A DNA stretch of 64,000 bases from Gemmatimonadota bacterium (GTDB lineage: Bacteria > Gemmatimonadota > Gemmatimonadetes > Gemmatimonadales > Gemmatimonadaceae). The translations under genes were made by a program, and so were the position numbers. Within the stretch, counting starts at the first letter, position 1. Each line of letters starts with the position of its first letter. The DNA lies in assembly GCA_016182795.1 (NCBI GenBank), contig JACPFW010000026.1:11905-75904 (forward strand), read 5' to 3'. Positions 6,388 to 54,456 of this stretch are shown in pieces. The notes beneath the pieces were generated by a model, which did not search any database, was not told where the DNA came from, and saw nothing but the letters and a program-made list of their open reading frames with translations.

Positions 6388-8007
<1,620 letters not shown>

Positions 8008-8031
8008 CGAACAGGCAGCACCAACGCACGG

Positions 8032-8059
8032 AGAGGGCCGGCACCTATGCCGGCCCTCT
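8032..8059. terminator. Bidirectional intrinsic-terminator-like hairpin between the convergent pckA and lipoprotein genes
   Basis: agagggccggc-acctat-gccggccctct (11-bp perfect stem), followed by ttcat. Confidence 0.6.
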
Positions 8060-8089
8060 TTCATGGGCACCCTGCCCCTTCCCCTGCAC

Positions 8090-8626
8090 CTAGAGTCCTG
8101 TCCTCCGGCACCCTCCCACCCGCTCATCCACCAGCAGTTCGTTCCATCCCGTTCCCGATGGAATCGCGAAGGCAATATGCGCTGCCTCGTGCTCGACGCT
8201 GTGCACCACCTCGTCGAGTGACCGCCGCCCAACATTGAGCGCATCGACATCGCGCGCCACGTCGATCTCACCCGTCGATGTCGCCTGCGCCGACGCCAGC
8301 TGGGTGCCGACCCGCCACATGTACGGACGCACTACAATGCGTCGCGCCGCGAGCGAGCCCTCGAGCACCGAAGCGTACGCCTGGCAGTCGCCGCCGCGTG
8401 CCTTGAGGTCGGAGACGCGCTGCGCCAGCGCGCGGATCACCTCGTTGCTGGCCGCCTGCTCGGCGCAGGCGGCGCACGCGGCCGACGGTTCGCTCGCCAC
8501 GAGTTCCTTGCTGCGCGGCGCCTCCGGCACGGGGGCCGGCTTCGGCTTGGCCCGAACGCATCCAACGAACCCGACGCTCATCGCGGCGCACCAGATCAGC
8601 CGCACCGACCATCGCAAACCAGGCAT
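8090..8626 (-). CDS. Hypothetical lipoprotein with an HEAAH (HExxH-like) motif
   Basis: Internal ATG at 8626 is preceded by GGGAGAA. MPGLRWSVRLIWCAAMSVGFVGC is a lipobox-type signal. The C-terminal part contains VEHEAAHIAF. Confidence 0.55.
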   Translation of the reverse strand: MPGLRWSVRLIWCAAMSVGFVGCVRAKPKPAPVPEAPRSKELVASEPSAACAACAEQAASNEVIRALAQRVSDLKARGGDCQAYASVLEGSLAARRIVVRPYMWRVGTQLASAQATSTGEIDVARDVDALNVGRRSLDEVVHSVEHEAAHIAFAIPSGTGWNELLVDERVGGCRRTGL

Positions 8627-8744
8627 GAGCTTTCTCCCGAGACGGAGGGTCCGTACATACTGCCGCCGATCCGCCCGCCGACGCAACCGGCGGGTGCCCC
8701 ACCGCCAACCCTGCTGGCCCCTCTCGCCTCCCTCCCCCACCTTT

Positions 8745-8821
8745 CTACCTTCTACCTTCTACCTTCTACCATCTACCGTCTACCGTCTACCGTCTACCTT
8801 CTGCCGTCTACCTTCTGCCGT
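8745..8821. repeat. Tandem heptamer array, 11 x CT(A/G)CC(T/A/G)T
   Basis: ctacctt x3, ctaccat, ctaccgt x3, ctacctt, ctgccgt, ctacctt, ctgccgt, read contiguously. The array ends 3 nt before the ATG at 8825. Confidence 0.95.
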
Positions 8822-8824
8822 CCC

Positions 8825-10048
8825 ATGGCTTTCATCCGAGACCCCCTCTGGAACAACATCCGCATCGACGGGCCGTTCCTGCGGCTCGCCGACACTGCGG
8901 TCGTGCAGCGCTTGCGCTATGTCCGGCAGCTGGGCCTCGCGCATCTGGTGTACCCGGGGGCCACCCATTCGCGCTTCGAGCACGCCATGGGCGCCTTCCA
9001 CCTCGCCAACCGGACGCTCGCGCGGCTCGACGAAGCCGGCATGCTCGATCGCATTGCCCCCGACGAGCCCGAGGTGGTAGCCGCGGCGGCCCTGCTGCAT
9101 GACGTGGGGCACTACCCGTTCTCGCACGCCCTCGAAGAAATCGGCGCCATGCACCACGAAGCGGTCGCCGAGCCGATGATCACCGCCGGCGAGGTCGAGA
9201 AGATTCTGCGCGCCGAGATCGCCGAGGACGCCCCCGAGCGCGTCTTCGCGCTCATGCGCGGCGACAGCGTGTCGCCGCTGCAGGGGCTCATCAGTGGCTC
9301 CATTGACCTCGACAAGACCGACTACCCCAAGCGCGACGCCCTGATGTGCGGCGTCCCCTACGGCGAGATCGACGTCGACCGCCTGCTGCACGCCCTCGTC
9401 ATCGTCGACGATCCCCATCTCGGCCGCGCCGCCGTCGGCGTGCTCGAGAAGGCGCTGAGCGCCCTCGAATCGCTGCTCTTCGCCAAGTATCAGATGTACC
9501 GCAACGTGTACTGGCATCACGCCGTGCGCAGTCCGACGGCGATGTATAAGCGGCTGGTGGCCGACGCCCTGCGCGCCGGCGCCATCGAGAGCGGCGCCTT
9601 GGTGGCCCATACCGACGAGGGACTGCTGCACGCCCTGCGCGCGCGCACGCCCAGCGACCTGCTCGACGCCATCCTCTCACGGCGCCTGTACAAGCGGGCC
9701 ATGGAGTGCCCGGCCGCGGAACTCGACGGCATCGACCTCGAGTGGATCGCCGAGGATCACGATCGCGCCCGCCGCGCCGAGGATGCCATGGCCGACCGGC
9801 TGGGCCTCGCGCCGGGCGAACTGCTCATCGACTATCCGCAAAAGGAGCAGATGCTCGGCCTCGACCTCCCCGTGCTCACGCGCGACGGCCGCGTCGAACG
9901 GCTGACGAGCGAGGGGATGGCCGGCGCCATCAACCTGCCCGTGCTCGCCGACCAGCTCTACCGTTCCGCGCGGTGGCTGCGGGTCTTCACCAAGACGCGC
10001 CGGCGCATTGAGAAGCGCGACGTGCTGCGAATGCTCAGCGAGGCGTAA
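8825..10048 (+). CDS. HD-domain phosphohydrolase (COG1078, dNTP-triphosphohydrolase-like family)
   Basis: MAFIRDPLWNNIRIDGPFLRLADTAVVQRLRYVRQLG...SRFEHAMG...LLHDVGHYPFSHALEE contains the H...HD...D signature. The N-terminus matches the usual family start. Confidence 0.8.
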   Translation: MAFIRDPLWNNIRIDGPFLRLADTAVVQRLRYVRQLGLAHLVYPGATHSRFEHAMGAFHLANRTLARLDEAGMLDRIAPDEPEVVAAAALLHDVGHYPFSHALEEIGAMHHEAVAEPMITAGEVEKILRAEIAEDAPERVFALMRGDSVSPLQGLISGSIDLDKTDYPKRDALMCGVPYGEIDVDRLLHALVIVDDPHLGRAAVGVLEKALSALESLLFAKYQMYRNVYWHHAVRSPTAMYKRLVADALRAGAIESGALVAHTDEGLLHALRARTPSDLLDAILSRRLYKRAMECPAAELDGIDLEWIAEDHDRARRAEDAMADRLGLAPGELLIDYPQKEQMLGLDLPVLTRDGRVERLTSEGMAGAINLPVLADQLYRSARWLRVFTKTRRRIEKRDVLRMLSEA

Positions 10049-10883
10049 GCAGCAGCCACGACTGCGGCGTCCGGCGATGCTCCTGCATCAGCGCCTCGAG
10101 CGTCGCCGGCATGCGTGACCGCCACGGCTCGGCGATGCCCGGCGCGAGGTGGGCAAGTACGCGCGTTTCCGAGGGGAAGCGGCGGACGTCGTGAGTCCGC
10201 GCGAATCGCGCCGCCATCACCGGCTCCGTGGGCGGCTCGACGTGGCTGTGACACTCCACCAGGATCGTGACGCGGGCGAGGGCCGTCACCGCCGCTGGAT
10301 CGAGCAGGTAGAGTTCGCCGCCATCGACGTCGCATACCACCAGCGCGCGGGCCCCCGATCCCAGCGACGCGGCGAGCGCGGCGTGGTCGCACTCGCCCGC
10401 AATCGCCACGCGCCCCGCCGCTCCGTTCAGGGCAACGTTGGCGGCCAGCGCCGCCCGCGCCGAAGCGTCGGCTTCGAACGCGTGGACGCGCGCCGACGGC
10501 ATCACGCGCGCCAGTCCCACGGCGTAGTATCCGTGGCGGGCGCCAATATTGATGACGCGTTCAAACGGCGCCGCGGACAGCTCCTCAACGACGCCGGCGA
10601 GTTCGCACTCGTACGTGCCGAGCAGTTCCGGCGCCGCCGGCGAGCCGGCGAGCGGCATCCCCGCGAACGGACCACTCAGTACGCGATCATGCGCCAACGC
10701 GCGCAGTCGCCCATACAGGAAACGGCGCTTCGGTCGCAGCCCCCAGCGCACGGCGTCACGCCAGCCAGGCGGCAGGGCCTGAAACATCCGGAGCAGCGGC
10801 CCGCTCCCTTCAACCGTGCGCTGTCCGGTGAGCAGCTCCCAGAGCAGCCGCGGGACGCCAAGCTGTGGCGTCGCCGGCGTCAC
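10035..10883 (-). CDS. SAM-dependent methyltransferase, FkbM-like
   Basis: 282-aa ORF starting at GTG, with VINIGARHGYYAVGLAR...VHAFEADASA (a glycine-rich SAM loop followed by an acidic residue). The GTGA overlaps the stop of the upstream small ORF. Confidence 0.6.
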   Translation of the reverse strand: MTPATPQLGVPRLLWELLTGQRTVEGSGPLLRMFQALPPGWRDAVRWGLRPKRRFLYGRLRALAHDRVLSGPFAGMPLAGSPAAPELLGTYECELAGVVEELSAAPFERVINIGARHGYYAVGLARVMPSARVHAFEADASARAALAANVALNGAAGRVAIAGECDHAALAASLGSGARALVVCDVDGGELYLLDPAAVTALARVTILVECHSHVEPPTEPVMAARFARTHDVRRFPSETRVLAHLAPGIAEPWRSRMPATLEALMQEHRRTPQSWLLLTPR

Positions 10884-53556: not shown

Positions 53557-54366
53557 TCCGTCATCCGACTTGCGCGCAGTGTCGTTCCCTGCCTCTTGCT
53601 CTGCACTTCAGCTTGTGCTGTCTCGACGCAGCAGGAAGTCGAGATCGGCACCAACTACGCCTCGCAGATTGCCAAGGAACTGCCCCTCATTCAGGACGCC
53701 GAGGTCAACCGGTACATCACGACGCTCGGCCTGTCGCTGGCCCGTGTCGCCGACCAGCGAAATCTCGACTGGCACTTCCACGTTGTCGATAGCAAAGAGG
53801 TAAATGCTTTCGCCGTCCCCGGGGGCTACATCTACGTCAATCGCGGACTGATCGAACGCGCCACCAATATGTCGCAGGTCGCCGGGGTGCTCGGCCACGA
53901 AATAGGCCACGTCACCCGCCGGCACAGCGTCAAGCAGATGCAGAAGGCCCAGGGGACGAACATCGGCGCCACCCTGCTCTGCACACTGACGGCGGCGTGC
54001 AACTCGGGGCTCGCGCAAACCGCCGCGCAGATTGGCGCCAGCGCCGCGTTTGCGAAGTTCAGTCGGACCGACGAGGCCGAGGCTGACGACGAAGGACTGC
54101 GCTACGTGGTGAAGGCCGGGATCGACCCCAACGGCATCCCCGAGATGTTCGAGATCCTGGAGAAAGAGCGGAAGGAGAAGCCGACGTCGATGGACCTGTG
54201 GTTCGCGTCGCACCCAATGGAGGAATCACGCATCGCCGACACGCGGGCCGCGATCGCCAAGCTGCCGCCTGACCAGCTGAAGGGACTGGTGAAGGACACG
54301 AAGGAGTTTCAGGCGTTCAAGAAGCGGGTGATGGCACTGCCGGCGCCGCCCCCGACGAAGAAGTGA
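53548..54366 (+). CDS. M48-family zinc metalloprotease lipoprotein
   Basis: Lipobox LLCTSAC. NAFAVPGGYIYVNRGL...GVLGHEIGHVTRRH (HExxH)...EAEADDEG. Confidence 0.88.
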   Translation: MGHSVIRLARSVVPCLLLCTSACAVSTQQEVEIGTNYASQIAKELPLIQDAEVNRYITTLGLSLARVADQRNLDWHFHVVDSKEVNAFAVPGGYIYVNRGLIERATNMSQVAGVLGHEIGHVTRRHSVKQMQKAQGTNIGATLLCTLTAACNSGLAQTAAQIGASAAFAKFSRTDEAEADDEGLRYVVKAGIDPNGIPEMFEILEKERKEKPTSMDLWFASHPMEESRIADTRAAIAKLPPDQLKGLVKDTKEFQAFKKRVMALPAPPPTKK

Positions 54367-54456
54367 GGGTAGAAGCTAGAAGGTAGAGGGTGGATGGTTG
54401 AAGGTAGAGACTTCCTACCATCTGCCATCCACCTTCTACCATCGGCCTTCCGCCAC
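54366..54456. repeat. Palindromic pair of heptamer arrays (6 x AAGGTAG type, 7-nt spacer, 6 x CTACCAT type)
   Basis: agggtag aagctag aaggtag agggtgg atggttg aaggtag / ctaccat ctgccat ccacctt ctaccat cggcctt ccgccac. The pair fills the whole gap between convergent genes (stops at 54364-54366 and 54459-54461). Confidence 0.92.

Follow-up and report, generated by a model that had tools for sequence, protein, structure and literature searches.

A heptamer array abutting the start codon of an HD-domain phosphohydrolase gene in a Gemmatimonadota genome is a solo arm of a palindromic repeat family and probably an mRNA leader without a Shine-Dalgarno sequence

Tandem heptamers located immediately before start codons have been described in several bacterial lineages. 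TAACTGA heptamers of marine Beggiatoaceae, some Cyanobacteria and Bacteroidetes lie just upstream of gene starts at which a Shine-Dalgarno (SD) sequence is mostly absent (MacGregor 2015, PMC4679880). They occupy many loci with no functional theme among the genes downstream, and their function is unexplained; S1, cold-shock proteins (Csp) and CsrA have been discussed as readers (PMC4679880). Here, an array of 11 tandem heptamers was analysed at positions 8745-8821 (+ strand) of a 64,000-nt stretch of DNA (referred to as the window) from a Gemmatimonadota bacterium of the family Gemmatimonadaceae (GCA_016182795.1, contig JACPFW010000026.1, positions 11,905 to 75,904), which ends 3 nt before the start codon of an HD-domain phosphohydrolase gene (the HD gene). 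The array has the descriptive features of the class of heptamer repeats before start codons: like TAACTGA, it is a tandem heptamer repeat within a few nt of a start, at the position of a ribosome-binding site (RBS), without an SD sequence, and of a kind present at many loci. Its unit, CTACCNT, is however pyrimidine-rich, occurs in another phylum and also forms the arms of palindromes linked to PF05635 ('23S rRNA IVS protein', an S23p/Avd-like four-helix-bundle family). Moreover, species of a single genus differ in their unit here, whereas different phyla have TAACTGA in common.

The G-rich heptamers GGGNATC of Xanthomonas and Nostoc are a second relative, for which about four units are preferred, the copy number is variable and most arrays are transcribed (Rehm et al. 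2015, PMC4692102). Their G-rich strand is the sense strand within 50 bp after stops and the antisense strand within 50 bp upstream of open reading frames (ORFs) (PMC4692102). The same strand rule was observed among the abundant intergenic arrays of the present genome, in which arrays within 20 nt of starts had a pyrimidine-rich sense strand in a ratio of 38:4 and those within 20 nt of stops a purine-rich one in a ratio of 87:15. In contrast to GGGNATC, whose G3-4 tracts form G-quadruplexes, the purine-strand units of the HD array (AAGGTAG, ACGGTAG and ACGGCAG) contain at most GG, and there are 11 of them. The link to PF05635 was seen here and is not reported for the GGGNATC repeats.

That link recalls the Coxiella burnetii intervening sequence (IVS), in which an S23p (PF05635) ORF is flanked by terminal inverted repeats; these pair into a long stem that RNase III cuts, and the element is considered selfish (Warrier et al. 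2016, PMC4990558). Its purine-rich 5' arm carries tandem GACAGAT heptamers, two or three depending on the strain (PMC4990558). The cassettes of the present genome likewise consist of a PF05635 ORF between inverted arms with tandem heptamers; unlike the Coxiella IVS, which is inserted in rRNA helix 45, the elements here lie between protein-coding genes and mostly have no ORF. Since the copy at the HD gene is a single arm without a stem partner, excision by RNase III does not apply to it.

Slippage-prone repeats are also known from contingency loci, such as Haemophilus hmw1A and hmw2A, where 7-bp repeats lie between the promoter and the start codon. The poly-G tract of Moraxella UspA1 and the AGAT repeats of UspA2 are contingency loci of the same arrangement, as summarised in PMC4679880. 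The HD array resembles them in being a slippage-prone repeat between a putative promoter and a start, with copy changes in steps of one unit. Contingency loci, however, are single loci at surface genes with measured effects on expression, whereas the arrays described here, known from sequence alone, occur at hundreds of loci including housekeeping genes. Cyanobacterial short tandemly repeated repetitive (STRR) heptamers form a class akin to the long simple sequence repeats (LSSR) of prokaryotes. In LSSR, tandem repeats of 5-11 nt are in excess in some lineages, with heptamers the commonest and an intergenic bias (Mrazek et al. 2007, via PMC4679880); as presented there, this is a descriptive statistical class without a mechanism, and Gemmatimonadota are not among the genomes discussed. 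A literature search for tandem or intergenic repeats in Gemmatimonas or Gemmatimonadota found no paper, and in a search on PF05635 the family was barely mentioned outside papers on diversity-generating retroelements.

The array and its repeat family

The HD gene (8825-10048, + strand) encodes a protein of 407 aa that matches PF01966 (HD) and PF19276 (HD_assoc_2), with weak similarity of its N-terminus to dGTP triphosphohydrolase TIGR01353. Exactly as stated in a preliminary description of the window, 11 heptamers (CTACCKT/CTACCAT/CTGCCGT) end 3 nt before ATG 8825, and the CCC spacer (8822-8824) that joins them to the start codon (8822-8827 in all) contains nothing SD-like. The units, all in phase, are CTACCTT (three times), CTACCAT, CTACCGT (three times), CTACCTT, CTGCCGT, CTACCTT and CTGCCGT. 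Tandem Repeats Finder (TRF) called the array twice, at 8743-8816 (period 7, 10.6 copies, score 106) and at 8743-8822 (period 14, score 118). Its 77 nt comprise A10 C33 G7 T27, corresponding to 78% pyrimidine, 43% C and 9% G. The start assignment, which the same description had regarded as solid, agrees with 11 close orthologues that begin with M/V/L-[APT]-FIRDPLWNNIRI at the position of the HD start codon.

The two-unit word CTACCNTCTACC, allowing one mismatch, had 16 matches in the window against 0.10 expected from shuffles, of which 10 fell inside the array and six inside a palindrome at 54368-54440. The latter belongs to a two-armed element at 54366-54443, recognised by TRF and word search, in which GGTAGAA-type units face CTACCAT-type units of the HD-array family and fill a convergent gap. 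No inverted partner of the array itself was found within 7900-10300, where only AGACGG at 8641-8646 is complementary. The units are direct and not mirror repeats, which ruled out an H-DNA or triplex structure.

The whole genome (3.13 Mb, 67.7% GC, labelled G000) was surveyed with TRF, and arrays were mapped onto a home-made codon-bias gene call of 2611 genes (89% coding). As a result, 215 intergenic short-period arrays were found at the stricter score cut-off and 262 with the sensitive setting. The sensitive set comprised 87 heptamer, 74 11-mer (AGAGAAACAAC / CTCTGTTGTCT), 36 13-mer and 25 10-mer arrays, and about 19 intergenic arrays with a 24/25-mer period were counted in the stricter set. 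They occupy spacers in convergent, tandem and divergent gene contexts. The heptamer arrays, including the HD array, share the unit class CC[AG]TC[TC][AG] and have a median of 4.6 copies, the HD array being the third longest, and about 25 others end 0-18 nt before starts. These counts do not support a device special to the HD locus, as the array is one of 87 intergenic heptamer arrays among roughly 260 short-period arrays genome-wide. Beyond this genome, the three-unit word CTACCNTCTACCNTCTACC was plentiful in most of the genomes belonging to the same genus, with 0-425 matches. One further genus of the family had it, and elsewhere in the order it was essentially missing.

Arrays of these families are arms of palindromes; in a complete element, a purine arm is followed by a centre and then by a pyrimidine arm, whichever strand is read. 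In 30 of the 31 spacers holding two arrays, the order was purine followed by pyrimidine, and the paired arms fold as palindromes of great stability, with an average of -79 kcal/mol for 137 nt. The arms also have a polarity of their own: on the pyrimidine strand, 26 of 51 arrays had the CTGCC variant as their last unit, compared with eight of 51 that began with it (p = 4e-7). The HD array ends in CTGCCGT, the outer-end variant of the heptamer-family arms, and because this unit stands against the ATG, the array is read as a pyrimidine arm with its outer end at the start codon.

The genome contains seven PF05635 genes, six of which sit between purine-left and pyrimidine-right arrays, each of a different family. 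The arms are 11-mers at C24:90777-91373, 10-mers at C26:31389-32003, 13-mers at C49:86300-86900, 26-mers at C27:47200-47800 and 24/25-mers at C40:60103-60735. The sixth cassette, at C8:77795-78330 (ORF 77942-78238), has heptamer arms of the HD-array family, GATGGTA/GAGGGTA on the left and CTACCAT/CTACCGT on the right, and the units CTACCAT and CTACCGT are common to its arm and to the HD array. All main intergenic repeat families of the genome are represented among these six cassettes. Eight other genomes of Gemmatimonadaceae provided 25 PF05635 loci with full flanks; both arms were present at 14 of them and some array at the remaining 11, none being without an array. At the HD locus, the family unit and polarity are present, whereas the PF05635 ORF and the inverted stem arm of a complete cassette are missing. 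These results show that the HD locus carries a lone pyrimidine arm from the CTACCNT/CTGCCNT family, one of about six arm families in the spacers of this genus.

A PF05635 gene was also observed directly upstream of ychF, both in the window's genome (C7:39951-40265) and in the related genome G048 (locus L174, G048:C190:713-1024). The G048 copy has CACCTCC heptamer arms, of which the pyrimidine arm ends at the ychF ATG, and the copy in the window's genome has no arrays. As the adjacency is found in both genomes and the arrays in one, the cassette at this locus appears to be old, its arms coming and going.

An association of each repeat family with its own PF05635 gene raises the question of whether the arrays are phased putative binding sites, either for the PF05635 pentamer encoded by the corresponding cassette or for a cold-shock-domain protein with a footprint of about 7 nt. 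The co-variation of the HD unit with the same-genome cassette, detailed below, would agree with such a role, as would the median copy number per arm, which across the 7-, 10-, 11- and 13-mer families is 3.5-4.6 and thus close to the pentamer number. Xanthomonas S23p is indeed a homopentamer, as cited in PMC4990558 from Lin 2006, and PMC4679880 cites Sachs 2012 and Morgan 2007 for CspB, which binds heptamer repeats with a single protein on each unit. However, the HD array has 11 units rather than about five, a related genome (G045) has an HD array and no PF05635 match, and the S23p protein of Coxiella is apparently not even expressed (PMC4990558). Protein binding is accordingly regarded as an improbable explanation of the HD array.

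A putative promoter and an open leader

Directly 5' of the array, a -10-like hexamer, CACCTT (8738-8743, + strand), is preceded by a -35-like hexamer, CTGGCC (8714-8719, + strand). Both were recognised by conservation, since the pattern CT[GA]G[CT][CG], exactly 18 variable nt and [TC]AnnnT recurs in the window and in eight related species; the predicted transcription start lies at about 8750-8752. A sigma-54 reading of CTGGCC was rejected on inspection, as the GC that it requires at an offset of 10 nt is missing. Among the nine species, the start codon lies 28 to 81 nt from the -10-like word (81 nt in the window), a distance that has no preferred value and that the array or its relics take up. 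As the inner end of the array touches the conserved CTGGCC-N18-CACCTT, transcription would start in the first units, and the array would approximate the whole 5' untranslated region (5'UTR). Judged from this conserved arrangement, the array is probably the 5'UTR of the HD gene, about 75 nt long.

At least 11 HD orthologues without an array carry words of the same class, [TC]AnnTT (CACCTT, TAACTT, TAAGTT, TACCTT or similar), 5-11 nt before the start, a predicted leaderless geometry. Since the -10-like word lies so close to the start in these genes, the array can be understood as having expanded, or been inserted, in the stretch that separates the -10 element from the ATG. An origin by duplication of the -10 heptamer itself (CCACCTT, identical to CTACCTT at six of seven positions) was considered and is weakened, because the unit is that of a genome-wide family and matches the PF05635 arms; it is weakened further by the distant orthologue group L009, where TACCTT is part of the arm. 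The preliminary description had also likened the units to anti-SD words. This look is that of the pyrimidine strand of purine/pyrimidine palindrome arms, and CACCTT is better explained as a conserved -10-like word; the comparison was dropped as unnecessary, and the assembly lacks the 16S 3' end against which it would be made.

Genes of leaderless type form a clear class in this genome. At 73 start codons, the distance from the end of a TAnnTT word is 6-9 nt (27, 16, 11 and 19 genes at the four positions), against a background of about 3 per position. The HD gene could then have a leaderless mRNA, with a TACCTT inside the array driving transcription from the ATG or just before it and the array acting only as a DNA-level promoter spacer. 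Five of the units contain TACCTT, the last ending 10 nt before the ATG, and the array-less orthologues look leaderless. At the HD gene, however, no -10 element ends 6-9 nt before the start; CACCTT lies 81 nt upstream, and the 10 nt of the nearest TACCTT is in the tail of the genomic distribution, with 6 genes. Furthermore, there is no -35-like word 17-18 nt above this TACCTT, whereas CACCTT has CTGGCC at exactly 18 nt, and orthologous arrays built of CCGTCTG, GTCCATC or CCGTCTT units have no TA-containing box near the ATG. An untranscribed array is therefore considered a quite unlikely reading.

If transcribed, the array would be an exceptionally open leader. The array with the first 45 nt of the HD gene had a minimum free energy (MFE) of -12.2 kcal/mol (z = -0.2), and its first 46 nt were unpaired. 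For the region from -80 to +45 the MFE was -10.3 kcal/mol, compared with -41.2 +/- 10.7 kcal/mol for 400 genes with comparable spacers, which places the HD gene in the least-structured 0.75%. Likewise, the region from -40 to +20 of the 38 array-preceded genes had a mean of -5.1 kcal/mol versus -15.0 kcal/mol. None of the SD words GGAG, GAGG and AGGA was present at -20 to -4 of the HD ATG, nor do the array-preceded genes have them, and the purine run that the preliminary description had found missing between array and ATG is indeed absent. The contrast it had drawn with other genes of the window needs a qualification: a 4-mer of AGGAGG was found at -20 to -4 in only 32% of 2577 predicted genes; the lack of an SD sequence is thus the majority state and no anomaly. 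SD sequences are nevertheless in use in this genome, as seen from a peak of SD-like spacing at 5-10 nt. An upstream ORF in the leader was ruled out, as the array contains no ATG, GTG or TTG.

The composition of the leader also resembles that of Rho utilisation (rut) sites, which are C-rich, G-poor and unstructured RNA of about 70-80 nt. The array could thus be a Rho-loading attenuator that causes early termination unless initiation is prompt, coupling HD expression to translation capacity. The 77 unstructured nt with 43% C and 9% G have these features, and a bona fide rho gene is present (C13:33095-34333, 607 bits, over the cut-off). This basis is purely compositional, however; the start codon follows the array immediately, so that the untranslated window is short, and arrays of the same kind stand before genes that are presumably expressed well, ahcY among them. 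Such an attenuator is very improbable. A second Rho-like ORF was noticed at C40:112930-113997, which scores 430 bits, below the TIGR00767 cut-off, in an open frame of 569 aa.

On the other side of the promoter-like element, the spacer is divergent, as had been proposed. A small ORF on the minus strand (8090-8626) has a possible start codon (CAT, 8624-8626), 198 bp from the HD gene; it has a lipoprotein-like N-terminus and its own GGGAG SD-like site, being preceded on its own strand by GGGAGAAAGCTC, and matched nothing in Pfam or NCBIfam. An Rfam scan of 8300-9200 (E<=1) gave no match, and no intrinsic terminator was found by a scan of 8400-9000. About 22 nt past the stop of pckA (8005-8007), a GC-rich hairpin was noted at 8029-8062 (GAGAGGGCCGGCA-cctA-TGCCGGCCCTCT followed by TTC), and between it and the stop of the convergent minus-strand ORF (8090-8092) lies a pyrimidine-strand piece of the 24/25-mer family (8067-8091). 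Two spurious long ORFs, 8235-9080 (+) and 8780-9631 (-), span the array (e.g. ...LPSTFYLLPSTVYRLPSTF...). In a high-GC genome, such repeats lead to false N-terminal extensions and false ORFs, and masking is advised for annotation.

Orthologous loci and copy number

Orthologous loci were taken from metagenome-assembled genomes (MAGs) of Gemmatimonadaceae. Contigs of the same species were not found by an exact-protein look-up, and no match in a metagenome scan exceeded 88% aa identity. A period-7 array within 25 nt of the start was present in 25 of 147 HD orthologues, with period 8 in one and no other period; among the 64 orthologues not classed as lying within 45 nt behind an upstream gene, 21 had period-7 arrays. 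The unit differed by lineage and included CCGTCTG, TCGTCTA, GTCCATC, CACCTCC, CCTGTTT, CCGTCTT, CATCGCC and CCCCAGT, among others.

In each of the four genomes that could be compared, the HD-leader unit was that of a PF05635 cassette arm of the same genome. The leader and the cassette arm share CTACCNT in the window's genome, TCGTCTA together with the odd variant TCGACTA in G041, and CCTGTTT in G049; in G048, they are identical at 35 of 36 nt including flanks. None of the foreign HD units (G041, G048 and G049) occurred as a tandem dimer in the window's genome, and sub-variants of the GTCYRYC type at the HD locus recur at many other loci of the same genome. Because the HD units track the cassettes of their own genome and foreign units are absent, the arrays are taken to be homogenised within genomes, by conversion or re-insertion, with the position at the gene retained.

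Length variation was seen at two levels. Within the array, identical units adjoin (three CTACCTT, three CTACCGT and two copies of the 14-mer CTACCTTCTGCCGT), and such runs of the same neighbouring units are a signature of recent slippage. Between two orthologous loci, L007 and L083, the sequence is 100% identical over 1600 nt except for a gap of 14 nt, equal to two units, which fits slippage. Sequence comparison thus shows a copy number that changes in steps of 7 nt and a unit that stays similar to those of the genome's remaining arrays, PF05635 arms included. Separately, it was observed for loci L005 and L008 that the HD coding sequences are 94% identical and the upstream context is rearranged, L008 lying directly behind pckA. 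As a short heptamer array abuts the start in both, the array travels with the 5' end of the HD gene.

The preliminary description had read copy-number change as a means of altering both leader length and promoter spacing. The first part stands, since leader length would change; promoter spacing would not, as the array lies downstream of CTGGCC-N18-CACCTT. A phase-variable switch, in which slippage turns HD expression on and off or grades it, could still draw on the runs of identical units, the two-unit difference between L007 and L083, and precedents between promoter and start codon such as the Moraxella UspA2 AGAT repeats (PMC4679880). However, the array affects neither promoter spacing nor, being non-coding, the reading frame; the 28-81 nt between the -10-like word and the ATG show no preferred value; hundreds of like arrays stand at unrelated housekeeping genes; and an HD-domain phosphohydrolase is not of the surface or antigen class. 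We therefore see little probability in a contingency switch at this locus.

A comparison with ahcY (C21:336184-337674; orthologues L199-L220) bears on the role of the arrays in initiation and shows that such behaviour is general and not peculiar to the HD gene. None of the 14 same-genus ahcY genes has an SD-like word, all have leaders poor in G, with 0-4 G among the final 30 nt, and 10 of the 14 have detectable arrays with species-specific units, two species having a period of 24-26 nt. In other genera, SD-like sites (AAGGAG, AGAGG) were found in four of eight ahcY genes. Since the SD sequence is gone wherever arrays abut the start, initiation would now run through the array leader and not through an intact RBS below it.

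This result has to be weighed against the possibility that the array is a tolerated passenger, the decayed half of a selfish palindromic element, which is kept by slippage and homogenisation and takes no part in HD expression. The strand rule and the position at gene ends follow from the geometry of the element alone; the same families fill about 260 spacers in all contexts of gene orientation; the units track the cassettes of the genome and not the gene; and many HD orthologues have no array. A mere passenger would, however, be hard to reconcile with array-bearing HD and ahcY genes that are without SD sequences where their array-less counterparts have an SD sequence or leaderless geometry, which implies that initiation must work through the array. 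The G-poor leaders of all 14 same-genus ahcY genes and a leader among the least-structured 0.75%, which is what SD-independent initiation needs, point the same way. Thus, the passenger explanation deserves serious weight but is considered unlikely.

Interpretation

Taken together, the account that we favour, with moderate confidence, is that the array is a solo pyrimidine arm of the PF05635-linked family that lies between a conserved promoter and the ATG as a 5'UTR with neither structure nor SD sequence, slips in steps of 7 nt and undergoes homogenisation with the remaining arrays of this genome. The array would have been inserted or expanded between the -10 element and the ATG of a formerly leaderless-type start, and transcription would begin in its first units, leaving the array as essentially the whole leader. 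On this open leader without an SD sequence, the 30S subunit would load on unstructured, G-poor RNA, probably through protein S1. The route would be SD-independent initiation of the same kind that about two thirds of the genes of this genome must use, while leader length would drift by 7-nt slippage and the unit would be homogenised with the resident arrays. In short, the HD array is probably an unstructured SD-less mRNA leader rather than a dedicated switch.

Several observations weigh against this account. The strand rule is no evidence in itself for a role in translation, because a palindromic element whose polarity is fixed will generate it in any case, whether paired or remnant. When the stability of sense and antisense stems of paired arms was compared by MFE in tandem contexts, where G-U versus A-C asymmetry would be visible, the outcome was 8 versus 9 (p = 0.49), and selection on the arm family at the RNA level is thus unproven. 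Conservation alone points to the transcription start and to there being a leader at all: a sigma-70 consensus scan of 8400-9000 returned no promoter, and CTGGCC/CACCTT is a weak match backed only by conservation. In the distant group L009 (compared with L174), the TACCTT word belongs to the repeat arm itself, so the promoter reading is confined to the nine close relatives. The gap between L007 and L083 could also be explained by an assembly effect or by heterogeneity within a sample. As for the cassette link, five of the nine genomes examined had no PF05635 cassette with the HD unit among the loci fetched from these incomplete MAGs. In G045 (5.5 Mb, likewise an incomplete MAG), the HD orthologue at locus L033 stands behind an array of CCGAGTG (8.6 copies), whose unit is not rich in pyrimidines, and PF05635 gave no match; it is possibly an exception to the link.

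A broader proposal, which we put forward tentatively and consider rather unlikely as a whole, is that the dispersed arms are non-autonomous copies of the PF05635 cassettes, kept uniform by copying or conversion, with the PF05635 pentamer reading about five phased repeats, and that the pyrimidine arms have been co-opted genus-wide as replacements of the RBS, a repeat leader having taken the place of an SD sequence or a leaderless start in genes like ahcY and the HD gene. If true, this would join rRNA intervening sequences, start-adjacent heptamer repeats and the orphan PF05635 family in one mechanism.

By itself, the array is an unremarkable case of heptamers abutting starts, a class that has been described but not explained, and its value lies in the context. 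The repeats are traceable to PF05635 palindromic cassettes, the unit at the gene shifts in step with the cassettes of the same genome, and the genes that bear arrays have lost the SD sequence, as in ahcY, or the leaderless geometry, as in the HD gene. The locus may thus offer a testable system for the recognition of leadered mRNAs without SD sequences in bacteria that seldom use such sequences, and for the role of PF05635/IVS proteins and heptamer-armed stems.

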